Source of the DNA: Escherichia phage fEgEco12
DNA: 64,000 nt
Direction: 5' to 3' (one strand)
Sequence record: PP777464.1
Within the stretch, counting starts at the first letter, position 1, and every line of letters begins with the position of its first letter. Positions 41,625-61,469 of this stretch are shown here, piece by piece. A program made the translations under genes and the position numbers. A model generated the notes under the pieces. That model was not told where the DNA came from and ran no database searches. It saw only the letters and a list, made by a program, of their open reading frames with translations.

Positions 41625-41625
41625 C

Positions 41626-41988: not shown

Positions 41989-41989
41989 A

Positions 41990-42361: not shown

Positions 42362-42367
42362 TAAAAA

Positions 42368-42392
42368 ATCCAGTACTATAATAGTACTGGAT
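42368..42392. terminator. bidirectional hairpin between convergent membrane-protein and cassette arrays
   Basis: TCCAGTACT-ATAAT-AGTACTGGA. Confidence 0.65.
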
Positions 42393-42397
42393 TAATT

Positions 42398-43522
42398 TTA
42401 ATTATCTAAGCCACCAATTACACTGAACTGTGTGGTAACGTCTGAACTATTATCTATGTAAGTTCTTCTACCAACATAATATAGTTGTCCTTTTGCTTGA
42501 ATAAAAGTTACGGTCCCTGTATTGAATGTTATAATATCATTGTATGTAATGTCAGGTGGTAGTGCTGCTGATAACGCAGTAACTTTACTTAATGCAGCAC
42601 TAGTACTACCATTTATACCAGCAGCAATACTACCAGTACCATAGAACTTATTATCTTTACCAATGAATACGTTGGCTGATGCTTGTGTAGCTGATGTTAT
42701 TGCCTTACCAATTTGGAATGCGGTTCCTATGGTGTATGGTGTGCTCCTGGCTGCGTCTATGCTTTGTGTATATCCATCCCCTAGCTGACCATTAACTTTG
42801 TCACCACATGAGTATAGAGTACCATTGAGGCTGTATATGATCCCACGGTTAGAGAAGCTAACAGCTTCTGCATTAGTCCATACTGGTGCGGTGTATGAGT
42901 TTACACGACTAGCGGTAGTTCCTAGACCTAGTATACCATATGTGTTATCACCACATCCAAACCATTGTCCAGAACTGTTTTGATAGAACACTGAACGTTC
43001 TGTTGATTCCATGCGTACAGCATCCACAGCACCACTTTTAACGAACGAAGTTGATGAGGATGTAGTACCAGTACCCAATGCACCATAAGTGTTTGTACCA
43101 ATCGCATAGATTGATCCTAGTGGTGTCATAACACGTATGCAGTTATATCCCAATTGAACTTTACATTCAAATAGGTTGTCCCATATTTCAGGAACAGCAG
43201 AAAATAAATTTGTAATTTCGAACCATGATGTTGTCGAATCAGTTAATCCAATACTGCTTTTGTTTCCTAAAATGAAAACAGTTTTGTCCTTCTTAATTAT
43301 CCATGATGATAGGAAACCTATCTCACAGCTATGAACATTTGATTCTATTTGGGTAATATAATACTTAACTGTGTTATCACCCATGAATGCCGCAGCACCG
43401 GATGCAAAAAGGTTTCCAGTTTGTTTATTTAAAATGTAGTTATTGTTTCCATATACACTAACATCATAAGAACTTTCTTGTTTTTCGTTCCCATAATCAA
43501 ATAACAATACGAAAGGTAACAT
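42398..43522 (-). CDS. cassette protein 15 (last in array): RCC1-like repeat beta-propeller, variant N-terminus MLPFVLLFDYGN
   Basis: GTNTYGALGTG, GDNTYGILGLG, GDKVNGQLGDG repeats. Confidence 0.75.
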   Translation of the reverse strand: MLPFVLLFDYGNEKQESSYDVSVYGNNNYILNKQTGNLFASGAAAFMGDNTVKYYITQIESNVHSCEIGFLSSWIIKKDKTVFILGNKSSIGLTDSTTSWFEITNLFSAVPEIWDNLFECKVQLGYNCIRVMTPLGSIYAIGTNTYGALGTGTTSSSTSFVKSGAVDAVRMESTERSVFYQNSSGQWFGCGDNTYGILGLGTTASRVNSYTAPVWTNAEAVSFSNRGIIYSLNGTLYSCGDKVNGQLGDGYTQSIDAARSTPYTIGTAFQIGKAITSATQASANVFIGKDNKFYGTGSIAAGINGSTSAALSKVTALSAALPPDITYNDIITFNTGTVTFIQAKGQLYYVGRRTYIDNSSDVTTQFSVIGGLDN

Positions 43523-43599
43523 GATAAAATCTCCTTGTGTTATACTTTATTTAATCATTTTATAATGTACAATTTTACAGCGATTTAATTGAGGTACTC

Positions 43600-44250
43600 A
43601 TGAATAAAAGAAGTAAGTTCTATCAAGAATATTTCACTAAACAGAAACGATTCACAAAAAAATACTTTACATCATCCCACCGACCAGTTGCAAGTTACAA
43701 ACGTCCTAATACTAACTATCTTACTGGTGGCAAGTTTAGTGCAAAGTTCGAATTACTTATGCGTGAAAAGAATATCAAGATGCATTACGCAGAGACGAGA
43801 AAAAACTCATCAATTATTTGTTCTGATTTTCTTGAGTACGGTTGTTTAACTTATAAATTCAACGATGTATATTTGTATATTGATGTTGATTGTAACAGTA
43901 CTCGTATGTTTGAGATTTCAATTCACCCAAATCACAACCGTTATATAAACATTAACTTGGTTGATAAAGTACTGATTGGTATATCTAGTACTGATGGTGG
44001 TGGATTTGAATTTATTGCTTCAAAATATGATGAGGACTTTGTACTGTTCCCAGTACTTGATGATGTGAAAGATATTCTCAATTCATTAAAAGGAAGTCAA
44101 TACAAATTATCTGAAGAACAGCTATTTCAGTACTCACTTATTCATGATGATATCGAGATATACTTAGAGTGTGCGAGAATATTGGAGTATCTTTATAATG
44201 AACTAACAACAACTGGTAAAGTGACAGCATTCACATTATATAATATGTAA
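43600..44250 (+). CDS. hypothetical protein, FQYS motif family, embedded on opposite strand inside the cassette array
   Basis: 216 aa; LFQYSLIHDD motif. Confidence 0.6.
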   Translation: MNKRSKFYQEYFTKQKRFTKKYFTSSHRPVASYKRPNTNYLTGGKFSAKFELLMREKNIKMHYAETRKNSSIICSDFLEYGCLTYKFNDVYLYIDVDCNSTRMFEISIHPNHNRYININLVDKVLIGISSTDGGGFEFIASKYDEDFVLFPVLDDVKDILNSLKGSQYKLSEEQLFQYSLIHDDIEIYLECARILEYLYNELTTTGKVTAFTLYNM

Positions 44251-44257
44251 AAGAAAA

Positions 44258-44276
44258 GCCAGTACATAGTACTGGC
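44258..44276. terminator. GCCAGTAC...TACTGGC hairpin
   Basis: GCCAGTAC-ATAG-TACTGGC. Confidence 0.6.
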
Positions 44277-44282
44277 ATTATA

Positions 44283-45419
44283 TTAAACTGGTGGAGAATT
44301 ATATGGCTCAAATTTATAAGTTGTCGTAGCAGTACCAGCAATGGCGTTGTTAGCTAGTATGTACATAGTCCTGTAGTCGATTACCACTACAGTAATACTA
44401 CCACCAAAAGCATAGTCTGTTATGTTATTAGTGTTGAATGGTAAATTAGATGAACTGGTCCATGTATTAGCTGTTGTGCTATTTGTACCATTGGAATAAC
44501 CTACACTAGATGCACCAGTTGTCCATAAGTTTCCATCATTGAACAAGGAGACATGGTTAGTTGTATATGATTTATTAGGTATAGAACTATCAATTGGTGT
44601 ATTCCAAACTTTAGTAACCCATGTTGTAACTGCTGTATTATTAGTAACGCCATTACCTAATGAACCATTTATTGGTATACCTCTTATATAAGAAGTGTTA
44701 GTACTAGGGTCAACATATCCAAATGTATATGTATCAAATGCAAATTGAAAACAATCAGAACTCGGTAATGTGTACAGTAATGTATATGAAGACGTGTTTA
44801 TTGATGAATTTGTACCGTTCACGCCTTGGTATAAAATACCACTAGCCAATATTTGATTATTATTTTTTGTTATAGTGTTCATTGATGGATATGTTTTCAC
44901 ATCACGCACATCATTAGTCACATATGTTTGTGTTGATAATGCAACGTTACTACCATTACCTATAACCCCTGTATTTGCACCACTCCCATAAAGTGAACCA
45001 TCATTCAAAAGAACCATTGTAACATTACCATTTCCCGTAATTGTTTTAATATTACTAACATCCACCGCAGCAAATACAGTTGATGTTAAATCAGTGAAAC
45101 GTGTATAATGTGATGTTGTGCCATTGATTGGTGTCGCAAAACCAGAATACAAAATTCTATTTTCTTTGGTAATAAGGAATGTGCCAGTAACACCATTTGA
45201 ATGGATATCAACAATATTATCGCCCATTAATACCCAATCACTTACGAATGTTGTTGTACCAGTACCCAACCCATATGTCGTATTGTATCCACGTCCATAC
45301 ACTCTACCATCACTGAGTAATGTTACCACACATTGACCACCACCACCAAGGATAACTTTTTGGATAGTACTCTTTACTTTTATATTCCCGTACTTAACCA
45401 TTCTTGCAAAAGGTAACAT
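44283..45419 (-). CDS. cassette protein 14: RCC1-like beta-propeller, N-terminus MLPFARMVKYGN
   Basis: 378 aa; RGYNTTYGLGTG; no hairpin between it and cassette 13. Confidence 0.75.
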   Translation of the reverse strand: MLPFARMVKYGNIKVKSTIQKVILGGGGQCVVTLLSDGRVYGRGYNTTYGLGTGTTTFVSDWVLMGDNIVDIHSNGVTGTFLITKENRILYSGFATPINGTTSHYTRFTDLTSTVFAAVDVSNIKTITGNGNVTMVLLNDGSLYGSGANTGVIGNGSNVALSTQTYVTNDVRDVKTYPSMNTITKNNNQILASGILYQGVNGTNSSINTSSYTLLYTLPSSDCFQFAFDTYTFGYVDPSTNTSYIRGIPINGSLGNGVTNNTAVTTWVTKVWNTPIDSSIPNKSYTTNHVSLFNDGNLWTTGASSVGYSNGTNSTTANTWTSSSNLPFNTNNITDYAFGGSITVVVIDYRTMYILANNAIAGTATTTYKFEPYNSPPV

Positions 45420-45433
45420 TCTTTTTCTCCTTG

Positions 45434-46582
45434 TTATATTGATGGCATATCCAACACATATGAGTTGCTAGTGATTGATGAATATGTAGAATTTAAACCT
45501 GTACTATAAACATAATCACCTGCCCATAAGAATGTTCTATCCAATGTTGTATGTATTTCAATATCATCATATGATGATAATGATATTTGTGCCAGTGTAT
45601 ATGTAGTAGCATCAATGTTTGAACCAATACCCAAAGTACCATTGTATTGTGATTGGGAGTTTTGACCAGTTGCATATATACCAGATTTGGTTATTAAATG
45701 CTGATTGTACATTGACGTACCTTTAAACAATTTAATTAAATTAGAGTTGGGTGTTGTTATTTGTGCAGGAGCAAGTATTGTTGTTGTAGTGCCACCATCA
45801 CCCAATTGACCATATCGTTGGTAACCACCAGCGTATACCTGTTTAACTCCAGCAGTAGTTTCTATAATAAAGAATGAACCATAGCCAGTAGTATTAAAGT
45901 CTATTATTTTATTTGTACTCAAACCAACATTATATCTAGTAAATGTTGTTGCATTTGCTGAACCACCAGCATTCCCACCGACCATTTGACCACTATAATA
46001 AAATGCACCAGTACTGTCAGTATAAGCCATACAGTTTTCACTACCATATATTTTCACTGGTGTACTGGGGAAACTAGAGGTTATATTCACACATGTATTA
46101 TATTTTGCAGTAGTTCCAGTAATTTCACCATTGTTGTTTTGACCAATGACCCAAACTGTGTCATCTGAACGTATAGCCATTGAGCTATAAAACGAGGATA
46201 CAAATTGTTTAATAAAGGAACCAGGGAGAGAAGTAAGCATACTATTGATTTGTGCACTCACATTGGTCCATGTATTCACAACTGAATTGACACCTGCTGC
46301 TGCACCGGAACCAGAACTCCACCATGATTCATCATTCTTTTTAATCAATGTACCGTTAGCAGAGCAATAAACATCAGCAACTGAACTATTAACTAATATC
46401 CATTCCCTCGCTGCTGTTGTATTACCAGTACCTAGCTGTCCTGCTGCATTACTACCCTTAGCATATAAATCGCCATTCTGCGTTAAAAGCATAGTATGTT
46501 GGTATCCAGTTGACAATTTCTTTATTTTTGGTAATGCTGGTGCTTCATTTCCATAATCAAACATTCTAACAAAAGGTAACAT
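45434..46582 (-). CDS. cassette protein 13: RCC1-like beta-propeller, N-terminus MLPFVRMFDYGN
   Basis: 382 aa; GSNAAGQLGTGN, YGQLGDGGTT. Confidence 0.8.
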   Translation of the reverse strand: MLPFVRMFDYGNEAPALPKIKKLSTGYQHTMLLTQNGDLYAKGSNAAGQLGTGNTTAAREWILVNSSVADVYCSANGTLIKKNDESWWSSGSGAAAGVNSVVNTWTNVSAQINSMLTSLPGSFIKQFVSSFYSSMAIRSDDTVWVIGQNNNGEITGTTAKYNTCVNITSSFPSTPVKIYGSENCMAYTDSTGAFYYSGQMVGGNAGGSANATTFTRYNVGLSTNKIIDFNTTGYGSFFIIETTAGVKQVYAGGYQRYGQLGDGGTTTTILAPAQITTPNSNLIKLFKGTSMYNQHLITKSGIYATGQNSQSQYNGTLGIGSNIDATTYTLAQISLSSYDDIEIHTTLDRTFLWAGDYVYSTGLNSTYSSITSNSYVLDMPSI

Positions 46583-46659
46583 AATTCCCTCCTTTATTCA
46601 TTATACTATATTTAATCAAAAAGAAAAGCCAGCACTCTGTACTGGCATAGTATTAAGGT

Positions 46660-47790
46660 TTAAATATTTTTATAATTAATTTCTACATAGTTACGTTGTG
46701 TTCCAGTATATCCTGGAACATTACCTATATTTCCATTACCTGCACCAAACAGACGTTCTCCGACTGCAAAATATGTCCCATAGAAACAACCATCAAACAC
46801 AGGAACATCATTATAATTTGATATGTAATTATCCATAGAATCCATTCTAGTGTATACTGTCAGAGCTACATTCGTACCCATACCATATGCACCATACGGG
46901 TTAGTACCAGCAACATAATACCCAGTGGGTGTACATATTACTGGTGAATTTGCCCCTGATCTCGTGTGGATAAATCTAAATGTACCTTCAGGTACTGGTG
47001 CTTCTTTACTGAATAATGTTGTAGCTACTACTGGGTAATCAATACCATAACTATTACCACTCAACCACGTTTTACCATCACTATCTTTGAATAATGAACA
47101 GGATTGTGTGCATCCGAACAGATTCAAATTGGTTACATTTGGAAATTTACTAATTTGTGTATATACCAGAACTGTGGTTGCGGCAGCACTACCAAGTTGT
47201 CCACGACCATTATCACCCGCACTGTACATGTACCCATCGGTCTTTAATATTATACTAGCGTTTCCTAAAATATCAAAATCAACAACATCCGTTTGTGTTA
47301 ATGTAGCTATAGGATAACGAAAATTCACTGCCTCACCAGTACCAAATTGACAATTGGTGTTTGCCCCACATCCATATAAGTTGCCGTTTTGCATTAATAT
47401 AAACAAACCTGTTGTCATTTTAATTTTCTTAATATTAAGAATATCTATATCTTGGAATATGTGTGTTACATTTACAAATGTGGTTGAGTTAACAGCACTT
47501 GAACCATAATAAGAACCGTTCCCGCTGCCAAAGAATTCATCGCCTTTTCTGTACATTGCACATAGACTACCACCCCATACATCATCAACCCCAGTGTCAA
47601 TTTGAATAACAGAAGTAACACTAGTTGTTGTACCAGTGCCAAGTTCACCACCTGAATTGTATCCAAAACCATACAAATCCCCACTTTCTGTTAGCACCAA
47701 AACACTGTTATTGGTTGTGCATGAAATCTTTTTGATATTATTAGATGGTCTTTTATTTCCGTACTTAACCATTCTTGCAAAAGGTAACAT
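46660..47790 (-). CDS. cassette protein 12: RCC1-like beta-propeller, N-terminus MLPFARMVKYGN
   Basis: 376 aa; GYNSGGELGTG, GDNGRGQLGSA. Confidence 0.8.
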   Translation of the reverse strand: MLPFARMVKYGNKRPSNNIKKISCTTNNSVLVLTESGDLYGFGYNSGGELGTGTTTSVTSVIQIDTGVDDVWGGSLCAMYRKGDEFFGSGNGSYYGSSAVNSTTFVNVTHIFQDIDILNIKKIKMTTGLFILMQNGNLYGCGANTNCQFGTGEAVNFRYPIATLTQTDVVDFDILGNASIILKTDGYMYSAGDNGRGQLGSAAATTVLVYTQISKFPNVTNLNLFGCTQSCSLFKDSDGKTWLSGNSYGIDYPVVATTLFSKEAPVPEGTFRFIHTRSGANSPVICTPTGYYVAGTNPYGAYGMGTNVALTVYTRMDSMDNYISNYNDVPVFDGCFYGTYFAVGERLFGAGNGNIGNVPGYTGTQRNYVEINYKNI

Positions 47791-47835
47791 ATTTCCCTCC
47801 TTTATTCATTATACTATATTTAATACAAAAAGAAA

Positions 47836-47856
47836 TGCCAGTATCAAGTACTGGCA
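47836..47856 (-). terminator. inter-cassette hairpin TGCCAGTA-TCAAG-TACTGGCA plus T-run on minus strand
   Basis: same hairpin at 49835, 51099, 59557. Confidence 0.65.
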
Positions 47857-47869
47857 TAGTTTTATAGTA

Positions 47870-48979
47870 TCATTTCGGCATTGTAATTGCAGACCATGAG
47901 TTCGTGGTAATAGGACCTGGCACATACAAAAAAGAACCACAAGCATAAATTTGATTATTACCATCAAATACTATACTAAAATGTGCACATGTGTATAATG
48001 CTGATTTTTCTGGGTTGTAATTATCTAAAGTTAGTGTATTGGTGAATCTACTCAAACCACCACCAGAACCATTTCTACCAAATTCACCAGTACTATATAT
48101 CTTTCCTTCGGTTGTTGCGTACATATTAACATATGAAGTTGCACTTGATTTTGATATTTTATGTATCTTACTATCAATAGTAGTGGAGTTAAATGCAAAT
48201 GGATATACTTGTGTGTTCGTTGTAATACCGTTACCAAGTTGACCAACATACTGCCAACCTGCGTTGTATATATTGCTGGCTGAATAAGCAAGAGTACCAG
48301 TACTGTTACCACCAAACAGTTTAACACTGGTTAACCTGCTTACTAGTGTAGTATACTGTCCTGGACTTACGCCAAGTGAACCATACCCACTACTCCCACA
48401 ACCGAGAAGTTCACCATTTGATGTTAATATTAATGTGTTATTCTGTGTACCCAATATATCAAGGACTGTATTAGCTCCGGTATTAATAACTGAAACAAAA
48501 GTACTCTGAGCCGTGGAATACCCAGCACCGAGTGAATAGTTACCATTCATGCCTCTACCATAAACAATCGAACCACTAGCATCAACGTAGTGCATTGTAT
48601 CTACACCAATTGATATCATTTTAATATTAGATATATGTGGAAATGAAGAAGTAACATTCAAACCACCCAACTGAATCGTAGTATTTCCTGTGCCTAATTG
48701 TGTGGTAACTCCATGCATTATGAATTCTTCACCCTTGAGATAAAGAATATTGTACGCCCCAGCCCATGCATCAGTAACACCTTCTGAAATTAATATCCAA
48801 GTATTTCTTGTTGCTGTATTTTCAACGTTTAACTGAAAATAAGTATTAACCCCACAACCATAAAGTGAGCCATCGCCATAGAGGACGTACAAATTATCAA
48901 GACCGCACAGTACTTTCTTTATCTTTGGATCTTCAGGTGCAATATTCCCGTAATCAAACATTCTAACAAAAGGTAACAT
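47870..48979 (-). CDS. cassette protein 11: RCC1-like beta-propeller, N-terminus MLPFVRMFDYGN
   Basis: start at MLPF ATG 48979 after GGAGG; track upstream extension discounted; close paralog of cassette 2. Confidence 0.8.
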   Translation of the reverse strand: MLPFVRMFDYGNIAPEDPKIKKVLCGLDNLYVLYGDGSLYGCGVNTYFQLNVENTATRNTWILISEGVTDAWAGAYNILYLKGEEFIMHGVTTQLGTGNTTIQLGGLNVTSSFPHISNIKMISIGVDTMHYVDASGSIVYGRGMNGNYSLGAGYSTAQSTFVSVINTGANTVLDILGTQNNTLILTSNGELLGCGSSGYGSLGVSPGQYTTLVSRLTSVKLFGGNSTGTLAYSASNIYNAGWQYVGQLGNGITTNTQVYPFAFNSTTIDSKIHKISKSSATSYVNMYATTEGKIYSTGEFGRNGSGGGLSRFTNTLTLDNYNPEKSALYTCAHFSIVFDGNNQIYACGSFLYVPGPITTNSWSAITMPK

Positions 48980-49051
48980 ATTTCCTCCTTTATTCATTAT
49001 ACTATATTTAATACAAAAAGAAAAGCCAGTACTCAAGTACTGGCCTATATT

Positions 49052-49789
49052 TTAGACTGAATTGTTAGGATAATATCTCCCACGTCCCCATATTATTCGC
49101 ACAGCACCACCACCAGCAGCAGTATAAGAAGAATTATCCCATATACTACCACCACCACCATACCTCTTACCAGCACCACCACTACCAGCACCACCATTAT
49201 ATGAACCACCGTAGCTACCACCAATACCATTAGCACCTTGAACAATGATACCAGTACCACCACCCGTACCAATGAACGAGGTACTATAGAATGTACCACC
49301 CCCACCGCCGCCGCCAGCACCATTTTCACCAGTGATTGCATCTCCGTTACCACCTTTACCAGTGTAGCCACCAGCACCACCACCAATGACTGCACCACCA
49401 CTTACACCAGTGTTGCCACCATTACCACCACCATCATTAATAGCGTTAGCAGCTTTTCCACCTAGTCCACCAACCGTATATGCACCAGTGAAGCTAACAC
49501 ATAGTTTTTCAGTTCCACGGTATAAACCGTTTTCAACTGCTGTAGTAGTGTTGGAATGTGTAAGAGAAACACTTAAGTACTCACCACCAGAAACTGGAAT
49601 ATTATTACGCCACGATAAGCCGCCACCAGCACCACGTTGACCACCCGGTGAAATAACACATACTGATATTTCGGTAACGCCAGCAGGAACTGTAAATTGT
49701 GTTGTTCCTATTGCCGTGATTAATTGTTCACCATGTGGCTTATATTCAATTTTATTCCCGTACTTAACCATTCTTGCAAAAGGTAACAT
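49052..49789 (-). CDS. cassette protein 10: glycine-rich protein with the same N-terminal module (MLPFARMVKYGN)
   Basis: 245 aa; irregular GGxGG runs, no collagen GXY periodicity. Confidence 0.75.
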   Translation of the reverse strand: MLPFARMVKYGNKIEYKPHGEQLITAIGTTQFTVPAGVTEISVCVISPGGQRGAGGGLSWRNNIPVSGGEYLSVSLTHSNTTTAVENGLYRGTEKLCVSFTGAYTVGGLGGKAANAINDGGGNGGNTGVSGGAVIGGGAGGYTGKGGNGDAITGENGAGGGGGGGTFYSTSFIGTGGGTGIIVQGANGIGGSYGGSYNGGAGSGGAGKRYGGGGSIWDNSSYTAAGGGAVRIIWGRGRYYPNNSV

Positions 49790-49861
49790 AATTCCCTCCT
49801 TTATTCATTATACTATATTTAATACAAATAATAATGCCAGTATCAAGTACTGGCATTATTA

Positions 49862-51052: not shown

Positions 51053-51123
51053 AATTCCCTCCTTTATTCATTATACTATATTTAATCAAAAAAGAAAAGC
51101 CAGTATCAAGTACTGGCGTAATG

Positions 51124-52266: not shown

Positions 52267-52340
52267 AATTCCCTCCTTTATTCATTATACTATATTTAAT
52301 ACAAATAAGAATGCCAGTACTCTGTACTGGCATTTTAATT

Positions 52341-53495
52341 TTAACTCGGTGTAACTATTTTTTTAAATAATCCTGTATTTCCGGCATTTTCTTCTTCATA
52401 CGGAATTGTACCCATACCAGCAGTTCTACTACCATTCCCTGAACCATATAATTCACCGTTTTTTAACATGAATGTTATCATATAACCATGTGTCATTTTA
52501 TCATATGGAACTGGTTCAGTTATATTAGTACATGCACGCCATGTTTTAATAACATTAGAGTTCGTTATTCCATCTCCAGAAGCGTTTCCACGCCCAGCGA
52601 AATACCATATACCACCTGCTCTAACGTGTGCTTCATAATTAGAACCACCTATGTAATCAATCGCAGTACTAGGAATACTAGAAGCTGGTATCTTTGTGAT
52701 TGTTCTAAGACTGTTAATAGTGCCATCAGTGCCATCACCCAACTGTCCATCTATTTGTGAACCGAATACATATAGCCCATCACTCTTTAATACGTAATTA
52801 GCACTATATGCATTTTCTGAATTTATCTGTAATACTCCAGTAGTAACAGTAGTCAATGTGGTAGTTGTACTAGTCGTACCAGTCGAACCAATACTAGATT
52901 TATTCCCACTGTACTTTAATGTCCCATCATTGTATAATACAAATGAAGCATTATTCGCGGTTACACCAATATCTTTAACATCAACTTCAGGTGTCAATGT
53001 CAGTACTGATACTCTTTGTCCAACAGCCCCAGTAAAAACTTCACCGTTGTTATTGTCACCCATCTTATATAATTTATTATCTATTGTTAATAATAATGTA
53101 ACGCCGTTTCCTATAACTATTTTACTATATGTGTCATTCACATTATTAAAAATACCAAGTATTTCTGTCCATACACGATAAGTAGTATTAACACCACGAT
53201 AGATTTGAGTACCAGTACTCCACCATGTGCCATCATTTTTACGTACTAATATTCCTTGTGTATCACCAGTAGTCCAAAATTCCTTTACATCAGTTAAACA
53301 TAAAACCCACTCTTCAACTATAGTAGGAGAACTACTACCAGTACCTAATTGATAGTAAAAATTATGCCCTCTGCCATATAATCTTCCGTCTTCTAATAAA
53401 ATAAACACATTATTCTGTAAAACTTTTACCATCTTTATACCAACTGGCACAGGTGCTTCATTCCCATAATCAAACATTCTAACAAAAGGTAACAT
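52341..53495 (-). CDS. cassette protein 7: RCC1-like beta-propeller, N-terminus MLPFVRMFDYGN
   Basis: 384 aa; GHNFYYQLGTG, GSQIDGQLGDG. Confidence 0.8.
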   Translation of the reverse strand: MLPFVRMFDYGNEAPVPVGIKMVKVLQNNVFILLEDGRLYGRGHNFYYQLGTGSSSPTIVEEWVLCLTDVKEFWTTGDTQGILVRKNDGTWWSTGTQIYRGVNTTYRVWTEILGIFNNVNDTYSKIVIGNGVTLLLTIDNKLYKMGDNNNGEVFTGAVGQRVSVLTLTPEVDVKDIGVTANNASFVLYNDGTLKYSGNKSSIGSTGTTSTTTTLTTVTTGVLQINSENAYSANYVLKSDGLYVFGSQIDGQLGDGTDGTINSLRTITKIPASSIPSTAIDYIGGSNYEAHVRAGGIWYFAGRGNASGDGITNSNVIKTWRACTNITEPVPYDKMTHGYMITFMLKNGELYGSGNGSRTAGMGTIPYEEENAGNTGLFKKIVTPS

Positions 53496-53565
53496 ATTTC
53501 CCTCCTTTATTCATTATACTATATTTAATCAAAAAGAATGCCAGTACTTGAGTACTGGCATTATG

Positions 53566-54675
53566 TTATTTTGGTAAATCAATTTTAGCAAAGACTGCAA
53601 CATCTGCACTTGCACCTGGAATGGCGTAATACGATCCAGTACTATATACATTCCCGTCTTTGGTTAATAATGATGTTAATCCGTCACTAAAAGCAACATC
53701 ACTAATCTCACTAACTTCTACAGGTAATTGTAAATTAGCAGCACTATAGATAGCACCCGTTTGAGAATTGTTTAATCCCAAACCACGGTTTCCCCCAATA
53801 CCTTTCTGATATGCACTAGTTAATATAATTTGCGTAGCCGTGCTTGTTGCCTCTGAATTTGTCATAAACAAAGGTGAATTATTAGGTAAAGTACTTACAG
53901 GAACTGCTTTGAATGTAGTTGAATCTGAACTAAGAAAGTTTGGAGTTGTACCACATGTGAAATATGATGTACCATTATAGTAATTGAGTGTATGTCCACC
54001 AATAGCTGCATCTATTACACCAGAACTACGCAGTCCCCAAATGTTAACTTGTGTTCTGTTCCCTGTGCCATGTAATCCACGGTCATTCCACCCTGAACTA
54101 TATAACTTATTATCTATGCTAATATACATACTATCATTAGGAGTAGACATAACTTTACGCACATTAGAAGCACATAGTGTTAATGTATATATTGATGAAG
54201 AACCAATCCCCAATACACCACGGTATCCATTAGCCCCAGCACCATAGAGTACTGAACTTGAACTGAGTACAAATATTACACCACCATTGCATACAATATT
54301 AGCAATTTGATTCACAGGAATTGTATTTGTAAACCACTCCGTTCTATCAACTAATGTAGTACTGTAAGAAGTTGTTGTTGATGATGTGAACCAATATGTT
54401 TCACCTGATGTCCATATCGTATTGTCATTTTTAATAATAACAAGTGTTCGTCCTCCAGTGAAAAAATTAGAAACATCTGCACTTACTAATGTCCAAGAAG
54501 ATACCGTGTTTTTATTACCATTTCCAGATTCACCACCTTGATTTCTGCCTATGTAATATAATTCATGTGAATCAGTCAATACGAATTGACCTTGTGTAGA
54601 AGCACCAACTTTTATTATATTTTTAGGACCAGGTGTAATATTCCCATAATCAAATAGTCTTACAAAAGGTAACAT
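53566..54675 (-). CDS. cassette protein 6: RCC1-like beta-propeller, N-terminus MLPFVRLFDYGN
   Basis: start at MLPF ATG 54675; GRNQGGESGNG. Confidence 0.8.
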   Translation of the reverse strand: MLPFVRLFDYGNITPGPKNIIKVGASTQGQFVLTDSHELYYIGRNQGGESGNGNKNTVSSWTLVSADVSNFFTGGRTLVIIKNDNTIWTSGETYWFTSSTTTSYSTTLVDRTEWFTNTIPVNQIANIVCNGGVIFVLSSSSVLYGAGANGYRGVLGIGSSSIYTLTLCASNVRKVMSTPNDSMYISIDNKLYSSGWNDRGLHGTGNRTQVNIWGLRSSGVIDAAIGGHTLNYYNGTSYFTCGTTPNFLSSDSTTFKAVPVSTLPNNSPLFMTNSEATSTATQIILTSAYQKGIGGNRGLGLNNSQTGAIYSAANLQLPVEVSEISDVAFSDGLTSLLTKDGNVYSTGSYYAIPGASADVAVFAKIDLPK

Positions 54676-54683
54676 AATTCCTC

Positions 54684-55877
54684 CTATTGTTGCCATAACT
54701 GCGTTGGCATTAATGTTAATGTTTTAATTAAGTAAGTACCATCCGGTAATTTACTACCTGAACCGTTAAAGCCCCCACATGCATATAATTTATAATCTTT
54801 AGTTATAATTATTGTTCTGGACCAGTCTTTGGATGCCATAAGAACATTGTCATATCCACCCTGTATCGCACTTAAAGAAAACGCCCCCCACGAAGTAATT
54901 ATTGTTGTATTTCCCGTCCCTTCTTGACCATATGTATTGATGCCTGCACTCCTGACATATGATGGGTATTGAGCCATAGGTGCACCAATTGTTGAGTTAC
55001 CCATATTACTAGGACACAGGAAACCATCACTAATATTCACTATAACCTGTGAATTCTGAACTGTAGTTAATTGGTTTGTAGTTGAAGTAGTACCATTCCC
55101 AGCTTGTCCAGAATTGTTTCTACCACTCCAGTACACCCTACCGGCAGTAAACCACCAGGTAACATCATAAGTAGTACTTATATAATCGACGTTGGTTCGT
55201 ATTAATTTATTAGTAAAAACGTATGAGCTAGTCCCACCACCACTTTCACCAAAGTTATCCTTACCACAAAACCATGCTTCTTTATTTGTTTTGAGATAGT
55301 GCGTACCCTGTAATGAACACGCCAATTGAGAAACTTCACCCATACCAGTAACAACTGTTAGTACTGGAATGGGATTTTGGTTACCTGTTCCACATTCGGC
55401 ATTTGCATTTTTACCACAAACAACGACTCTTCCATCGTGTAGTAATATTCTAGTACTTTCACCTATATGTACACTCTTGATTAAATTAGCGTGTATATTT
55501 ATTTTGTTAAATGCGGCAGTAACATCAGTCCATGTTCTAAAATAACCATTAACTGGAGTTGCATCTCCATAATCGGGGAATGCTACTGTATTCCCTGTGA
55601 AATATATTCTATTATCCAAGTCAATCATCAATGATCCATGAACGCCTAACCAAAAGGCTGCACAGTGCGTTGCCAGTACTGTAAAAGTTGAAACTGCCGA
55701 TTGATTCCCTAGACCTAATTGGCTCAAGTTATTACCACCATAACCGTATAGTGTATTCGTGGGCTTATGTAGATACATAGCATTAGTATAATGTTGCTGT
55801 AAAACATCAGTGAACTCAACTGGTTCAGGAATAGGCAGTTTATTCCCGTACTTAACCATTCTTGCAAAAGGTAACAT
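54684..55877 (-). CDS. cassette protein 5: RCC1-like beta-propeller, N-terminus MLPFARMVKYGN
   Basis: start at MLPF ATG 55877; YGGNNLSQLGLG. Confidence 0.8.
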   Translation of the reverse strand: MLPFARMVKYGNKLPIPEPVEFTDVLQQHYTNAMYLHKPTNTLYGYGGNNLSQLGLGNQSAVSTFTVLATHCAAFWLGVHGSLMIDLDNRIYFTGNTVAFPDYGDATPVNGYFRTWTDVTAAFNKINIHANLIKSVHIGESTRILLHDGRVVVCGKNANAECGTGNQNPIPVLTVVTGMGEVSQLACSLQGTHYLKTNKEAWFCGKDNFGESGGGTSSYVFTNKLIRTNVDYISTTYDVTWWFTAGRVYWSGRNNSGQAGNGTTSTTNQLTTVQNSQVIVNISDGFLCPSNMGNSTIGAPMAQYPSYVRSAGINTYGQEGTGNTTIITSWGAFSLSAIQGGYDNVLMASKDWSRTIIITKDYKLYACGGFNGSGSKLPDGTYLIKTLTLMPTQLWQQ

Positions 55878-55952
55878 AACTAAAATCTCCATATAATAAT
55901 TATAATGTATTTACAAAAAAATACCAGTACGTATTTCAGTACTGGTATAATG

Positions 55953-57134
55953 TTATGGTAAAATAATAGCTTGTAACGAACTCATACCCAATGTTGGAAC
56001 ACTCGCCTGTGGTGCTGGTGCATTCACTTTTGGTGATGAAACCGCATATGTCATTCCTGAACCCAAATCTGGATCAAAAACTACAGCACAATAATTCCCA
56101 CTATATATAAGTCCATTCTTGTATCCTTGTGCACTTTGAATGCATTTCGTGAACGTCCCAATATCTGTAGTGGCATTTATTAAGTTCCTCCCACGATAAC
56201 CGCAGGTGTATATGAAATTATCATCGCCTATGTACATACTAGAATCCCCAGCAGAACTACATAGATACGACATATAAGCACGCATGTTTTTAGGAGCAAC
56301 TGACAATGTACCAGCATAGAATTTATTATTCGAACCCGAAATATCACCATCACCCAAAGCACCAAAACTCCCCCAACCAGTACCATAATATCTCTTATCA
56401 CTCAAGAATATAATACAGTTGTTATTACACATCTTGACTTGATATATCAATGAAGGATCAACCCCAGGGAATGATTCAGTGTATGTTAGAACAGCCAGAT
56501 CAGTACTAGCATTACATTGATGATATGTATTAGTACCAGAGGACAATATTGTACCATCAACTAATAGAATCCTCGAAGTGCCAGTACCAGCAGTACAAGC
56601 AACTGCACTTCCTGCACTTCCGGTGTATATTTGTCTGAAAGTAAAGAAACCAACAGTCTTACTCCCTTGTCCACTCCAACCAGTATTATCAACACCACAC
56701 GCCCATACTGAACCATCTTCCATGATCATCATTACACCATAACGTTCTATTGAAATATAAACAATCTTTTTAGTATCAACTGCACTAAATCTAGAAGTTA
56801 TATCCGTCCAAACCTTTACACTTACCGCCGTCGCACTGGAAGTAGGATCTTCACCTGCTATCATTATCCTACCATTGTTAGTCAGATACATTGTCTGACT
56901 ATAACCAGTACTACAAAACTTAACACTATCAGTCTCTGGAACTTTTAACCACTCGTTGTAACGTGTTACGTTAGTGTTATTACCTAACTGATAATAGTTA
57001 TTCATCCCAGATACATATAACACACCATCCTTTATTAAACTATAAGTCGCACTATAGTCACTACAGGTATAACGTGTACCCACAGGTGGCTCAACGACGT
57101 TCCCATAATCAAACATTCTAACAAAAGGTAACAT
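55953..57134 (-). CDS. cassette protein 4: RCC1-like beta-propeller, N-terminus MLPFVRMFDYGN
   Basis: 393 aa; GMNNYYQLGNN. Confidence 0.8.
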   Translation of the reverse strand: MLPFVRMFDYGNVVEPPVGTRYTCSDYSATYSLIKDGVLYVSGMNNYYQLGNNTNVTRYNEWLKVPETDSVKFCSTGYSQTMYLTNNGRIMIAGEDPTSSATAVSVKVWTDITSRFSAVDTKKIVYISIERYGVMMIMEDGSVWACGVDNTGWSGQGSKTVGFFTFRQIYTGSAGSAVACTAGTGTSRILLVDGTILSSGTNTYHQCNASTDLAVLTYTESFPGVDPSLIYQVKMCNNNCIIFLSDKRYYGTGWGSFGALGDGDISGSNNKFYAGTLSVAPKNMRAYMSYLCSSAGDSSMYIGDDNFIYTCGYRGRNLINATTDIGTFTKCIQSAQGYKNGLIYSGNYCAVVFDPDLGSGMTYAVSSPKVNAPAPQASVPTLGMSSLQAIILP

Positions 57135-57207
57135 AATAAAATCTCCGTAATTAAATTATATAGTATTTACAAAAAATACCAGTACATATTTCAGTACTGA
57201 CCTATTA

Positions 57208-58329
57208 TTAAAAGGGCAACGGTAACTCAGTAAAAGTACTTACGTCCGGTAAACCATACATTGAATTAGCATCACCACAGTAATACCACTTCGTAGAATC
57301 ATGTACCACCGATAAACGCTGTGCACATAACACTTCCTGTATGTCATTAAACACCATCGGGACTAACTCATATGTATCCGCAAATGAAGATACACCACCA
57401 CTCGCATGAAAAGTATTCGTCCCAGCATAAAATAACTGATTAGTGTTCTTACCCACAGCAAATGTCATCAATATCCCATCATTCTCCCATAAAGAAGAAA
57501 ACTTATCAACACTACCAGAAAGCTCTGTGTAAGTACTCGTAATGGCACTCGCAGCCGCCGCATTACCCATCTGTTTATTCAAGTTCTGTCCAGCAATAAA
57601 ATATCTCGTTCGTGCACTAGAATCAGTATATAATAACCCAGTGTTCGTAGTCATCATACCAATGTCCTTAATCGTCATACCAGTCTGTGAATAACTTAGA
57701 TACGAAGTTAAATTAACATTATTACCCAACGAACCGTTATCACTCATGCCACAACGATGTAATATACCACTTGTATCAACGTAGATTGTACTAACTAAAC
57801 TCGTATACAACTCTTGTACATTATTCGCAATAAACACAGCAGTCGCCTTATTACTAACCCCACCAAATGATAGGTTATTATCAAATCCCTTAGCGTATAA
57901 TTGATTATTAGTAGTCAATAATCCAATCGTGAAATAAGACATTTTCATATCCCTTACTGTACTCAAATCTACTGCCCCAAATTGGTGCGTAACATCTGTC
58001 CATGTGAAAATCTGTGCACTACCAACACCACCCGTTTCAAACCATTTGTCACCACAGTACAATATGCGATTACCCTTAGTAAAGATAACTGTTACCAATC
58101 CACTACCACACGCAAACTTTACATCACTTCTAACCTTCGTCCAATCAAGTACATAGGTAGTGGTGTTATTACCTATACCTAACTTGCCATAACGGTTATA
58201 ACCACGCACCCACAAATCACCACTCTTAGTAATTAATAGTAATGCGTCTCCTGTACTTATTATTCGAAATCCCGAACTAGGATCAGGTACTTCATTTCCA
58301 TAATCAAACATTCTAACAAAAGGTAACAT
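57208..58329 (-). CDS. cassette protein 3: RCC1-like beta-propeller, N-terminus MLPFVRMFDYGN
   Basis: 373 aa; GYNRYGKLGIG. Confidence 0.8.
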   Translation of the reverse strand: MLPFVRMFDYGNEVPDPSSGFRIISTGDALLLITKSGDLWVRGYNRYGKLGIGNNTTTYVLDWTKVRSDVKFACGSGLVTVIFTKGNRILYCGDKWFETGGVGSAQIFTWTDVTHQFGAVDLSTVRDMKMSYFTIGLLTTNNQLYAKGFDNNLSFGGVSNKATAVFIANNVQELYTSLVSTIYVDTSGILHRCGMSDNGSLGNNVNLTSYLSYSQTGMTIKDIGMMTTNTGLLYTDSSARTRYFIAGQNLNKQMGNAAAASAITSTYTELSGSVDKFSSLWENDGILMTFAVGKNTNQLFYAGTNTFHASGGVSSFADTYELVPMVFNDIQEVLCAQRLSVVHDSTKWYYCGDANSMYGLPDVSTFTELPLPF

Positions 58330-58401
58330 ATTTCCCTCCTTTATTCATTATAATATATTTAATACAAAAAAGAAAAGCCAGTACAGAGTACTGGCATAGT
58401 A

Positions 58402-59511
58402 TTACTTGGGTAATGGAATTGTAGTCCATCTATTAGCGGCAACGCCCCCTGGTACATATGTAGGACTACCACTTACAGCAATAGTTTCATTACCATCATA
58501 CACAACACTGAAGTTTGTGCACGTATACAACGAGGCGGTATCTGGATTGTAATTTATAAGTGTTAATGTATTGGTGAACAAATTCAATGCAGTAGTTGAC
58601 CCGTTTTTACCAAACGAACCTGTCGTATATATCTTTCCTTCTGTTGTTGAGTACATGTTAACATATGACCCAGATGATGATTTGGCAATTTTATCTATCT
58701 TGCTATCTATCGTTTTAGAGTTAAATTGAAATGGATATACCTGTACGTTAGTATCTAAACCATTTCCTAGTTCCCCATTTAACTGCCACCCTGAGTGGTA
58801 CATTCCCGAATTTGTATATGCAAGCGTACTATACCCATTACCACCCATTATTTTAGTGCCAGATAATTTTAAACCAAACGATGTCCACTTACCAGTTTCA
58901 TTTCCTATAGAACCATAAGCACTTGTCCCACATGCTCGAAGCTCACCATTCGATGTTAGAAGCACTGTATTATTAACGTTACCAAATATATCAATAACCT
59001 GATTAGTTCCATTATTCAGTACTGAAGTGAAAGTACTCTGTGAGTAAGTACTACCTGAACCAACAGAACCATTTGTGTTCATACCTCTTCCATATACAGT
59101 TGTACCATCAGCACTAACATAGTGCATTGAATCAAAACCAATGGATATCATTTTAATATTAGAGATATCTGGGAATGAAGAAGTTACATCTACTCCACCT
59201 AATGGAATTGTAGTATTTCCTAAACCTAATGAGACATTAGTTCCGTGCATTATAAATTTATCTTCTTTCAAATATAAAATATTGTATCCACCAGCCCATG
59301 CATTACTAACACCATTGGTAATTAGTACCCAATTATTTTGTGTAGCAGTTCCATCAATATTTAACTGTTGATAGTTATTGATTCCACAACCATATAGCGA
59401 ACCATCACCATATAGTACATATAAATTATCATATCCTGCTATAACTTTCTTTATTTTTTTCGGTACTGGTGCAATATTCCCGTACTTAACCATTCTTACA
59501 AAAGGTAACAT
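58402..59511 (-). CDS. cassette protein 2: RCC1-like beta-propeller, hybrid N-terminus MLPFVRMVKYGN
   Basis: start at MLPF ATG 59511; close paralog of cassette 11. Confidence 0.8.
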   Translation of the reverse strand: MLPFVRMVKYGNIAPVPKKIKKVIAGYDNLYVLYGDGSLYGCGINNYQQLNIDGTATQNNWVLITNGVSNAWAGGYNILYLKEDKFIMHGTNVSLGLGNTTIPLGGVDVTSSFPDISNIKMISIGFDSMHYVSADGTTVYGRGMNTNGSVGSGSTYSQSTFTSVLNNGTNQVIDIFGNVNNTVLLTSNGELRACGTSAYGSIGNETGKWTSFGLKLSGTKIMGGNGYSTLAYTNSGMYHSGWQLNGELGNGLDTNVQVYPFQFNSKTIDSKIDKIAKSSSGSYVNMYSTTEGKIYTTGSFGKNGSTTALNLFTNTLTLINYNPDTASLYTCTNFSVVYDGNETIAVSGSPTYVPGGVAANRWTTIPLPK

Positions 59512-59556
59512 ATTTCCTCCTTTATTCATTATACTATATTTAATACAAAAAGAAAA

Positions 59557-59575
59557 GCCAGTATCAAGTACTGGC
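59557..59575 (-). terminator. inter-cassette hairpin GCCAGTA-TCAAG-TACTGGC
   Basis: read directly. Confidence 0.65.
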
Positions 59576-59583
59576 ATATTAAA

Positions 59584-60732
59584 TCACTGCCAAAATGACA
59601 TATCAACTTCTGTGAAATTAAGCACGCTCTGCGTAGAAAGACCACCCATTGCTACCATCGCAATTCCACAATAATATAACTTCCCTTTGTCATTGAGTAA
59701 CAATGTCCCAGATGGTGTTGTTACTAAATTGCACGAAGTATTAAAAGAAGTATATGAAGGAGTATAGTAGTACTGATTAATGGTATTACCTACACCTAAT
59801 TTTCCATACCCATTTTCTCCAGATGCGTAAAGTACTTCATCACCTTTAGCAATATGTGATGCCATGTTACTAACACACGTGTATACAGCTCTAACTCCTG
59901 TACTCAATAATGTAGGAGTCTTGTATTGGATATCAGTACTAGTAGATGTCCCACCTGTACCAAATTCATTACCGTATTGTGCACCGTATTGTTTACCACA
60001 AGCGTACAAATTATTATCCGATTTGATAAAAAATGTACTCTGATAACTTACATTAAAATCTATAACATCCGAAGAAATCATCGTCACCCCAGTAATAGAA
60101 GTTTGATTACCCGTGCCCAACTGGTAGTAATAGTTAAAACCACAACCCCATAAAGTATTATCTTCTCGCAAATAAATGTTACCAACTGCCTTTTTAACCG
60201 AAGTTATAGTATCTACTCTTTTGAATGTGTTAAAAGAATTAATGTTTGTGCCATCACCAAATGATGATATGTTCGATATATTGTTAGTTCCACAACAATA
60301 CAATGTACCATCGTTTGTTATCAAATTCACCTTCATATCATAAAAACTACTCATGTATTTTATATCAGAAACATTAATACCACTTGATGTTATCCACGTA
60401 GTACAGTCCGTCCACAAAGTTTTTCTATCAGTTACACCAGTGAATGCCTTCGTGTTACCAGTGATAAAAACTTTTCCAGTACCTTTCTCTTCATACAATT
60501 GACAATCACTACTGTTATCTTCCAATAGAACTCGTTTAACATTCTCCGCACAAAGAATAAATTTACTCGATGCTACACCTGTACCAGTACCCCAATTCGT
60601 CGCAGAAGATGCATACAACTTGTCAGTATAAGTATCATGAAGATACATAGAATCACTGGAATATATTTTATAACGACCAGAGTTGGTAGGAGCTTCATTC
60701 CCATAATCAAACATTCTAACAAAAGGTAACAT
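59584..60732 (-). CDS. cassette protein 1 (first in array): beta-propeller-like, N-terminus MLPFVRMFDYGN
   Basis: start at MLPF ATG 60732; same upstream TATAATGAATAAAGGAGG module. Confidence 0.75.
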   Translation of the reverse strand: MLPFVRMFDYGNEAPTNSGRYKIYSSDSMYLHDTYTDKLYASSATNWGTGTGVASSKFILCAENVKRVLLEDNSSDCQLYEEKGTGKVFITGNTKAFTGVTDRKTLWTDCTTWITSSGINVSDIKYMSSFYDMKVNLITNDGTLYCCGTNNISNISSFGDGTNINSFNTFKRVDTITSVKKAVGNIYLREDNTLWGCGFNYYYQLGTGNQTSITGVTMISSDVIDFNVSYQSTFFIKSDNNLYACGKQYGAQYGNEFGTGGTSTSTDIQYKTPTLLSTGVRAVYTCVSNMASHIAKGDEVLYASGENGYGKLGVGNTINQYYYTPSYTSFNTSCNLVTTPSGTLLLNDKGKLYYCGIAMVAMGGLSTQSVLNFTEVDMSFWQ

Positions 60733-60780
60733 ATTTCCTCCTTTATTCATTATATCATATTTACCCCAAAAAGAAAACCC

Positions 60781-60809
60781 TTGACAACCTTTCAGTACTG
60801 GTGTACTAT
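60781..60809 (+). promoter_or_regulatory. sigma-70-like promoter TTGACA-N17-TACTAT in divergent region
   Basis: TTGACA 60781-60786; drives the + strand small-ORF array. Confidence 0.45.
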
Positions 60810-61271: not shown

Positions 61272-61272
61272 T

Positions 61273-61458: not shown

Positions 61459-61469
61459 AAGAGTACTAT

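Follow-up and report, generated by a model that had tools for sequence, protein, structure and literature searches.

Escherichia phage fEgEco12 is an Asteriusvirus, that is, a jumbo coliphage of the 121Q/phAPEC6 type. We analysed a stretch of 64,000 nucleotides (nt) of its DNA (sequence record PP777464.1; hereafter the window, within which all positions are counted) and found a tandem array of fifteen genes, termed cassettes, that share a 12-residue leader peptide in front of strongly divergent bodies. On balance, these cassettes probably encode late, virion-associated accessory binding proteins with a common docking or incorporation tag, kept at a hypervariable locus. Each cassette would combine its own terminator, a TAAATA-type late promoter and a ribosome-binding site (RBS) with the 12-residue tag, an x-x-P-x-P linker and a head. 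The head would be a self-contained, beta-rich ligand-binding domain: fourteen RCC1-like propellers and one TNF-like/glycine-rich fold in fEgEco12, and in sister genera also a Kelch propeller or a ConA-like lectin domain. The tag, a short peptide of strand-like character, would be an address label shared by all heads, by which they dock at one site of the virion or enter one incorporation route, and a single phage would hold a repertoire of 10-17 alternative binding modules.

A fifteen-gene array with a common 5' module

A six-frame search of the window for leader-initiated open reading frames (ORFs) of the form MLPF[AV][RL][ML][VF][KD]YGN returned exactly 15, all on the minus strand within 42398-60732 and coding for proteins of 245-397 amino acids (aa). 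This is the number of same-strand genes with a shared 5' start that a preliminary description of the sequence had given. Their start codons lie at 43522, 45419, 46582, 47790, 48979, 49789, 51052, 52266, 53495, 54675, 55877, 57134, 58329, 59511 and 60732. The order of the cassettes is A, B, C, D, E, F, G, H, I, J, B', K, L and M, followed by N behind a plus-strand gene (43600-44250) that interrupts the array. When leaders and bodies of the 15 cassettes were aligned separately, mean pairwise identity was 84% over the 12-residue leader versus about 21% over the bodies, which bore out the strong divergence behind a common leader that had been described. A single body pair, 47870-48979 (B') and 58402-59511 (B), reached 64% identity.

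The leader is preceded by an equally repetitive module. A 27-nt box, TAAATATAGTATAATGAATAAAGGAGG, is present in 10 copies with at most two mismatches, all of them inside the array (0 expected from 100 shuffles). A terminator scan of the window yielded 25 terminator-like sites versus 8.1 ± 3.0 expected, and 12 of the 25 are hairpins of the type GCCAGTAC..GTACTGGC with a T-run behind a cassette. Together with a thirteenth after 49862, whose T-run is weaker, they confirm that most cassettes end in a hairpin and a T-run. The genes with starts at 45419 and 54675 have no promoter/terminator module and are separated from the gene upstream by 14 and 8 nt, respectively.

The preliminary description had given a conserved promoter with an AT-rich box containing TATAAT. 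An AT-rich box, RBS and leader are indeed conserved as a unit, but the conserved element of the box is TAAATA, which is of the late type, and not TATAAT. TAAATA is found at about -36 in 13 of the 15 cassettes; it is the element common to the two module types of this phage (..TTAAATAtagTATAAT.. and ..GTAAATAcatTATAAT..), and it is kept in the modules of distant genera where TATAAT is not. A sigma-70 promoter was rejected on the latter ground and from a scan that found 84 consensus sites versus 94.7 expected. As criterion for a late structural-gene unit we used a TAAATA-type box 30-60 nt upstream of the start. In phAPEC6, the TAAATA box lies upstream of the major head, prohead protease and baseplate wedge genes and of many adjacent structural genes, and the annotation of this phage includes a late sigma factor (gp237c). 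For CBB and GAP32, an ATAAATA sequence resembling T4 late promoters was reported before structural genes, with a gp55-like sigma factor in CBB (PMC5259590). Since structural genes have TAAATA in common, and given the ATAAATA reports and the phAPEC6 sigma factor, the cassettes are likely to be expressed late, in the manner of structural genes, as far as timing can be read from a promoter box.

The sole other TAAATA-N3-TATAAT box in the window lies upstream of 12148-13305 (phrog_10468, virion structural protein). Within the first 42 kb, no other large gene is on the minus strand; with its own array-type box (13328-13342) and hairpin terminator (about 12118-12140), 12148-13305 appears to form a late gene island within a block of small plus-strand genes.

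The array matched 36 phage records, all from Escherichia or Salmonella Asteriusvirus jumbo phages (121Q, PBECO4, phAPEC6, G17, BF17 and Ecwhy_1 among them), and any one of these covered at most 39% of it. A syntenic locus with 5-15 intact cassettes is present in nine phages; their bodies fall into 31 clusters (55% identity), and the order varies from phage to phage. The CMSTMSU locus was left out of the comparisons because its cassettes are frameshifted and the record is marked UNVERIFIED. BLAST blocks against Ecwhy_1, BF17 and EC.P1 start and stop within module plus leader, and adjacent blocks overlap by ~100 nt at the module (for example 49751-51117, 51015-52334 and 52223-53567). Body E, whose 3' end contains the RBS for the gene behind it, has F as its neighbour at this end in fEgEco12 and G17, D in BF17 and S in phAPEC6; the sequence common to these junctions is RBS and leader only. 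Synonymous divergence (dS) from Ecwhy_1 was 0 for cassettes B, D, E and F, 0.20 for A and 0.42 for H, and H is separated from BF17 by a dS of 0.07. Homology blocks that end at the module, shuffled cassette orders among relatives and discordant nearest relatives thus lend good support to the earlier proposal that the module is a built-in recombination substrate. Since every cassette opens with nearly the same ~110 nt (module plus 36-nt leader), recombination between cassettes, and between co-infecting phages, could delete, duplicate, reorder or import heads.

One leader peptide on unrelated folds

Fourteen of the 15 bodies matched PF25390 (expectation (E) values from 1e-8 to 2e-33, all under its whole-domain cut-off of 150 bits), and 11 of these 14 propeller cassettes exceeded the gathering score of PF00415 or PF13540. 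Sub-threshold for the RCC1 repeat models were 44283-45419 (M), 53566-54675 (F) and 57208-58329 (C). Cassette K (46660-47790, minus strand, 376 aa), the sole propeller cassette that was modelled, was predicted with AlphaFold2 from 22 paralogs and homologues. The leader is followed by a seven-blade RCC1-like propeller in this model (predicted local distance difference test, pLDDT, 80; predicted template modelling score, pTM, 0.84), and the top Foldseek matches were UVR8, RPGR, HERC2 and RCC1 (E 3e-22, template modelling score 0.76), with ~16% identity to RCC1. The RCC1-type seven-blade propellers expected for the array are thus found in fourteen bodies, but not in cassette J.

Cassette J (49052-49789, minus strand, 245 aa, leader MLPFARMVKYGN) is glycine-rich and gave neither an RCC1 signal nor a Pfam match. 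Its AlphaFold2 model is a glycine-rich head (pLDDT 90.6, pTM 0.88) with a predicted fold resembling that of solved phage tail-fibre heads of the Pam3 gp24 type, which are TNF-like plus glycine-rich. In Pam3, this domain forms the end of the fibre that binds the receptor (PMC9608196). Many homologues of cassette J have a precomputed PF21722 assignment, whereas J itself is an unmatched relative; the homologue P0053 scored 32.7 bits (above the cut-off) and another (L016:3338-4180) 20.2 bits (below). The model of J contains no helical shaft, and only the 12-aa leader and a short linker stand ahead of the head. Related phages also have LamG-type bodies, with matches to domains from baseplate-wedge and virion structural PHROGs. 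Purifying selection acts on the cassette bodies (median ratio of non-synonymous to synonymous divergence, dN/dS, 0.24; n = 42 pairs).

Public records name array proteins "regulator of chromosome condensation", "putative DNA condensation protein", "X-linked retinitis pigmentosa GTPase regulator" or "HERC1". All these names were transferred from the RCC1 fold alone, and the annotation as DNA condensation proteins is unsupported. RCC1 itself binds chromatin, and the authors who described eleven RCC1-like proteins in phAPEC6, a phage with an inner body and ordered DNA layers, speculated that they have a role in ordering DNA (PMC7247149). Nevertheless, we see hardly any likelihood that the cassettes encode DNA-condensation or inner-body proteins: the array proteins have isoelectric points (pI) of 5.1-9.2, neutral to acidic, with 5-7% lysine plus arginine (K+R) and without a basic N-terminal tail, and one cassette here and many in relatives are non-RCC1 yet carry the same tag. 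Their abundance in the virion proteome is low; a rod of 91 × 18 nm would, by our estimate, need several hundred copies of a 40-kDa protein, so that the peptide counts also speak against a bulk inner-body role. Further, a 2026 paper found two "chromosome condensation regulators" to differ strongly between phages of one species (PMC13070987), and a repertoire that differs between near-identical phages would be odd for a core packaging function.

The leader is found on further folds outside Asteriusvirus. In Klebsiella phage fENko-Kae01, the array comprises at least 13 genes and the leader takes the form MIPF[AT]R[IM]L.YGN; glycine-rich and Laminin_G_3 members are among them. In GAP32 two leader genes are adjacent, gp001 (RCC1) and gp002 (LamG-like, phrog_6011, annotated "virion structural protein"). 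A metagenomic contig from the European Nucleotide Archive (ENA) encodes, in a row, MLPFPIISNTD on a Kelch body, MLPFARIVQYGN and MLPFARMVQYGN each on an RCC1 body and MLPFARISAYGN on a second Kelch body; on another contig the leader precedes a Laminin_G_3 protein, a 69-aa protein and a glycine-rich protein. IMG/VR genomes of 355-371 kb carry it on RCC1, on a 676-aa RCC1+Kelch double propeller, on three Laminin_G_3 bodies, on Gly_rich_2 and on unassigned bodies. Using tblastn, homologues that include the leader were detected in Yersinia, Erwinia, Xanthomonas, Salmonella and Cronobacter jumbo phages. Whereas M[LI]E[LM]L opens the glycine-rich homologues of other phages, those of Asteriusvirus open with MLPF, which indicates that the N-terminus has been exchanged.

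A word-index search with cassette K gave only 18 matches but helped to find distant loci. An exhaustive profile search with the paralog alignment returned 144,486 matches, was swamped by giant multi-RCC1-domain proteins and proved uninformative on the leader family. All exact-leader DNA matches of 121Q in an IMG/VR scan lay inside its array (a protein-level scan of the whole genome was not made), and a leader match in a 59.5-kb IMG/VR contig was discarded as chance, being out of frame.

Leader statistics were taken from 134 unique proteins of the YGN class, with the consensus M-[LI]-P-F-x-R-[MIL]-hydrophobic-x-Y-G-N followed by the short x-x-P-x-P linker. M1, P3, F4 and N12 are invariant and Y10, G11, L/I2 and R6 nearly so; positions 7 and 8 are always hydrophobic, positions 5 and 9 vary freely, and the linker prolines stand at position 15 in 62% and at position 17 in 50% of the proteins. 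Judged from this pattern, the conserved side chains mainly alternate (2, 4, 6, 8, 10), as might be expected of a strand that packs with one face on a partner. In the AlphaFold2 models of both K and J, leader residues 1-10 have a pLDDT below 50 and lie outside the fold, and residues 1-17 of the K model are without secondary structure. The idea that the leader acts as the velcro strand closing the propeller ring was dropped, given these unstructured residues and the presence of the leader on non-propeller folds.

Within one genome, the 36-nt leader and the ~75-nt module are nearly identical among paralogs, whereas the bodies are saturated with change. The flavour of leader positions 5 and 7-9 tracks the genome and not the body; body F, for example, has VFD here, GVK in phAPEC6, AVK in 121Q, GIR in G17 and VLE in EJP2. 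These observations, and the rearrangement breakpoints within the leader, would fit a conserved 5' end that is purely a DNA or RNA element, namely an expression cassette of promoter, RBS and optimal first codons combined with a recombination or gene-conversion tract, the peptide having no function of its own. However, such an explanation is highly improbable. Across genera, DNA diverges and residues stay fixed: TTA alternates with ATA, P3 is CCT in Asteriusvirus versus CCA elsewhere, Y10 is TAC in 57 versus TAT in 52 cases, G11 uses four codons and R6 uses AGA, AGG and CGT. This synonymous turnover with fixed residues indicates selection on the leader peptide. Over the same distance, the tag is kept on at least four unrelated folds, and the combination of conserved positions 2, 4, 6, 8 and 10 plus P3, G11 and N12 with free positions 5 and 9 is a pattern of the protein type. 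Homogenisation of the leader does occur, though superimposed on peptide selection, and the genome-specific flavour reflects either DNA-level homogenisation or co-evolution with a genome-specific partner.

Two leader alleles of opposite charge occur in fEgEco12, ..FD.. in nine cassettes and ..VK.. in six. In the lower array they alternate strictly (FD, VK, FD, VK, FD from 48979 to 43522), and nearly all leaders of 121Q and phAPEC6 are ..VK.. or ..MN... The alternation could result from pairwise duplication or from two docking specificities, and the FD and VK flavours could address two different sites.

Virion association and possible function

Association of the array products with the virion, which had been suspected from the sequence, is supported by published proteomics. 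In CsCl-purified virions of phAPEC6, six array proteins (gp003, gp005, gp006, gp007, gp009 and gp010) were found with 1-4 unique peptides each (PMC7247149). This set includes orthologs of two window cassettes, gp005 for H (51124-52266) and gp009 for B' (47870-48979; non-synonymous divergence, dN, 0.011) (PMC7247149, Table 1), and such proteomics is blind to a location inside versus outside the virion. A study that also lists the 121Q and PBECO4 copies detected gp001 in GAP32 virions by mass spectrometry (PMC5259590). For fENko-Kae01, the glycine-rich cassette is flagged as found by liquid chromatography-tandem mass spectrometry.

The glycine-rich cassette of phAPEC6 (7325-8059) is unannotated, gp004 (7716-8018) being in a different frame, and was therefore not findable in the virion proteome search of that phage.

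Late lectin-like proteins that act outside the virion would account for some of these data. Such proteins might be set free at lysis to cover receptors on cell debris, or might work on the envelope from within; their detection in virions would be due to carry-over, and the tag would serve chaperone or partner binding or stability. The very low peptide counts agree with this, most fENko-Kae01 array genes are unflagged in a deep virion proteome that contains many non-structural enzymes, and the folds, being of binding type, are compatible. But detection or a structural annotation is on record for members with three different folds, from three independent phages (PMC5259590 among the sources), the promoter class is that of structural genes, and proteins of this kind would have no reason to carry one invariant N-terminal tag on every fold. 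We therefore hold this explanation to be improbable.

A more serious rival is the route of the T4 internal proteins, since it follows the same genetic logic. The leader would be a capsid-targeting sequence (CTS), and the cassette products would be packaged inside the capsid and then injected into the host as effectors of anti-defence or takeover, as the preliminary description had suspected by analogy. The internal proteins of T-even phages are a diverse set sharing only a CTS of ~10 residues (PMC3012670, PMC9026906). A T4-like prohead core scaffold/protease is encoded by the phages considered here (gp227c in phAPEC6), an inner body has been described for phAPEC6 (PMC7247149), array proteins occur in purified virions, and the locus is hypervariable between close relatives (PMC13070987), as expected of arms-race effectors. 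What the array shares with T-even phages is a short tag on unrelated bodies; the L/I-x-E site that defines the T4 sequence (PMC9026906) is not conserved after the leader, nor is the S/A/G-x-E site of the phiKZ type present at or after it. No glutamate is conserved at positions 1-24 at all (E at position 9 in 9/134 and at position 13 in 22/134 proteins). Nor is the leader similar in sequence to the T4 CTS: the IPIII/IPII leader, which we take to be MKTYQEFIAE, bears no resemblance to the MLPFxRMxxYGN consensus. Moreover, the array products are not basic, and they are proteins of 25-45 kDa with lectin-like or fibre-head folds, the solved phage homologues of which are tail-external. Internal proteins thus appear an unlikely, though not a far-fetched, explanation.

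Compared with the T-even internal-protein locus (IPI/II/III; Repoila 1994, cited in PMC3012670), the likeness lies in a tag of ~10-12 residues as the only shared part, in a polymorphic locus and in virion products. T-even internal proteins are small and basic or anti-restriction proteins, whereas here we see large beta-propeller, lectin or fibre-head folds in a 15-gene array, with a late promoter and a terminator ascribed to each gene. The proximity of denV, which had been taken as a further parallel to T4, where denV neighbours ipII/ipIII, is a weak argument: a DenV homologue is indeed encoded at 38501-39016 (PF03013), but ~3.4 kb with seven small membrane-protein genes lie between it and the array.

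External display appears more likely than the T4-style internal route, given the tail-fibre head homologues, the likeness of LamG bodies to baseplate-wedge and structural proteins, the neutral to acidic pI and the lack of a protease site. We infer a docking role of the tag, an external location and an adhesin function; the heads would be displayed on the outer face of the virion, on its tail, baseplate or fibres or as decoration of the capsid, and recognise structures on the host surface. Unassigned protrusions at the capsid hexamer centres and fibre rings on the tail were seen in phAPEC6 and 121Q (PMC7247149), with no link to array genes. Nor can the propellers simply be equated with tail whiskers, since CBB has whiskers and its authors state that it lacks an RCC1 homologue (PMC5259590).

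Several points weigh against accessory binding proteins with a docking tag. Low pLDDT is usual for many 12-residue termini in AlphaFold2 models and would not prove a free tag. The virion signals are weak, with 1-4 unique peptides per protein in phAPEC6, and of 220 proteins detected in fENko-Kae01 the glycine-rich one is the only array cassette flagged. We came across no published case of a phage that uses an RCC1-like propeller for receptor binding, and the whole-gene dN/dS of 0.24 does not indicate the strong diversifying selection often seen in receptor-binding proteins. Finally, a short shared tag on diverse bodies is the T4 capsid-targeting pattern, with which an internal location is compatible.

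A stronger form of the docking proposal is possible but doubtful. In this form, MLPF...YGN would be a universal docking tag with which Rak2-like jumbo phages plug dozens of unrelated heads, from RCC1 and Kelch propellers to ConA-like lectins and glycine-rich fibre heads, into one site of the particle. It would provide each virion or lineage with a combinatorial repertoire of quickly exchangeable adhesins, the tag DNA doubling as recombination site for the transfer of heads between phages. Modular receptor-binding proteins such as Pam3 gp24 and S16 gp38 also join a conserved attachment element to a horizontally exchanged host-binding head. However, their anchors are folded domains (helical bundles or adaptors of ~100 residues) versus 12 residues and a proline linker here, and they form trimeric fibres or spikes, whereas the heads of the array are mostly monomer-type propellers. 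A conserved anchor with an exchangeable head is likewise known from the multi-tailspike phages CBA120 and G7C. In the adenovirus fibre, a short N-terminal tail peptide docks into the penton base, and T4 Hoc is a non-essential binding-domain decoration at the capsid hexamer centres; both are a precedent for the 12-residue tag only and have no sequence or structural link to the array.

If the docking proposal is true, it would explain what purpose the array genes serve, which make up one of the largest sets of paralogs in the 350-kb coliphages; these phages are under characterisation for therapy, and >80% of their genes have no known function. It would replace misleading names ("DNA condensation protein", "HERC1", "RPGR") that are spread over dozens of GenBank records, and it would provide a testable handle on host-range and adhesion plasticity, as cassette content varies even within one phage species. 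A 12-residue peptide that loads arbitrary folded domains onto or into a large virion could also be employed as a display or delivery tag, like the T4 CTS. The locus is, in addition, a clean natural case of peptide selection and DNA homogenisation acting on the same 36 nucleotides.

The preliminary description had taken the array for undescribed. RCC1 paralog arrays have in fact been annotated and discussed for Asteriusvirus and Rak2-like phages (121Q_234-248, PBECO4, phAPEC6 gp001-gp010; PHROG 4219); they represent the same locus and family, with the same intergenic modules and the same flanks (denV, seven small membrane-protein genes and the small-gene array), and the literature treats the genes as tandem duplicates with a DNA-condensation role. 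For the leader, the cassette structure, the non-RCC1 members and the exchange at the module, no description was found in the searchable literature. As far as can be searched, the tag-linker-head architecture and its spread over at least four unrelated folds across several Rak2-like genera are new, and so are the tail-fibre-type head, the late-promoter assignment and the rearrangements and imports at the module.

Features along the array and neighbouring genes

Unless noted otherwise, the features of the array lie on the minus strand and its cassettes consist of the leader and an RCC1-like propeller. The first gene is cassette A (59584-60732, 382 aa, leader MLPFVRMFDYGN), which matches PF00415 with 36 bits, PF13540 with 34 bits and phrog_4219 with an E value of 3e-105. 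Its 5' module (60733-60809) contains a hairpin remnant, a T-run and GGGGTAAATATGATATAATGAATAAAGGAGG and faces a divergent plus-strand block. Module A/B (59512-59583) has a hairpin with T-run at 59557-59575, a TAAATA-N3-TATAAT box at 59528-59542 and a GGAGG RBS, and is followed by cassette B (58402-59511, 369 aa) with the hybrid leader MLPFVRMVKYGN. Between B and C, the module (58330-58401) has its hairpin at 58377-58395, its box at 58347-58361 and an RBS; cassette C (57208-58329, 373 aa) matches PF25390 with an E value of 4e-15, with the repeat models under cut-off. Two modules with type 2 promoters follow: C/D (57135-57207, promoter GTAAATACTATATAAT, hairpin 57178-57201) ahead of cassette D (55953-57134, 393 aa), and D/E (55878-55952, promoter GTAAATACATTATAAT, hairpin 55921-55948) ahead of cassette E (54684-55877, 397 aa, leader MLPFARMVKYGN), which has the RBS of the next gene inside its 3' end. 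That gene, cassette F (53566-54675, 369 aa, leader MLPFVRLFDYGN), is separated from E by the 8-nt gap and is without its own promoter and terminator.

Hairpin, box and RBS recur in the modules F/G (53496-53565; hairpin 53537-53562, box 53513-53527), G/H (52267-52340; hairpin 52310-52334, box 52284-52298) and H/I (51053-51123; hairpin 51099-51117, box 51070-51084), which precede cassettes G (52341-53495, 384 aa), H (380 aa) and I (49862-51052, 396 aa), respectively. Module I/J (49790-49861), ahead of the non-propeller cassette J, has the hairpin GCCAGTACTTGATACTGGC with a weak T-run, a box at 49807-49821 and an RBS. The same elements make up modules J/B' (48980-49051; hairpin 49023-49046, box 48996-49010), B'/K (47791-47869; hairpin 47835-47857, box 47808-47822) and K/L (46583-46659; hairpin 46628-46646, box 46600-46614), ahead of B' (369 aa), K and L (45434-46582, 382 aa). 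Cassette M (44283-45419, 378 aa) encodes a divergent propeller (PF25390, E 1e-8); it begins after the 14-nt gap to L without its own promoter and is followed by a hairpin at 44258-44276. The last one, cassette N (42398-43522, 374 aa), has a degenerate leader, MLPFVLLFDYGN, the upstream box TAAATAaagTATAAC and a bidirectional hairpin behind its 3' end (42367-42393).

In three of the listed ORFs (47870-49036, 58402-59577 and 59584-60750), the N-terminus is falsely extended (MNKGGN... or longer): with an RBS spacing of GGAGGAAAT, the ATG of ATGAATAAAGGAGG in the module comes into frame. GenBank records also contain mis-set starts: phAPEC6 gp002 begins at 3506 (ORF 3506-4810), and its leader ATG is at 3614. 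The long ORFs at 49093-49401 (minus), 51746-52354 (plus) and 52858-53181 (plus) run antisense or in other frames inside cassettes, are G/V-rich or rich in low-complexity sequence, and are most likely spurious translations of cassette DNA. In Salmonella phage SD-15_S21 (9500-15700) and in 121Q (13825-18646), several cassettes are truncated or split into fragments of 59-97 aa that keep the leader, which suggests ongoing decay or sequencing frameshifts.

The plus-strand gene that splits the array (43600-44250, 216 aa, phrog_34359) is unrelated to the cassettes and has the same place in relatives; it lies inside the array in this clade and outside it in 121Q and phAPEC6. Its paralogy with 62834-63493 (plus strand, 219 aa) was considered and found unsupported (BLASTP E 0.63). 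Between denV and the array, seven tandem plus-strand genes (39922-42361) form a paralog family of 104-123 aa, hydrophobic and membrane-like proteins with basic C-termini (..RKKRML, ..KYRKRG, ..KRKRGM). The family occupies the same place in all relatives, and its last member is phrog_27618. The GC skew changes sign at ~42 kb, as expected from the strand switch there. On the other side of the array, 60835-64000 holds at least 12 tandem plus-strand genes of 59-75 aa, transcribed divergently from the array; they form a weak family with a mean column identity of 36% and a C-terminal ..Y.E(V/I)LKLI.. motif.

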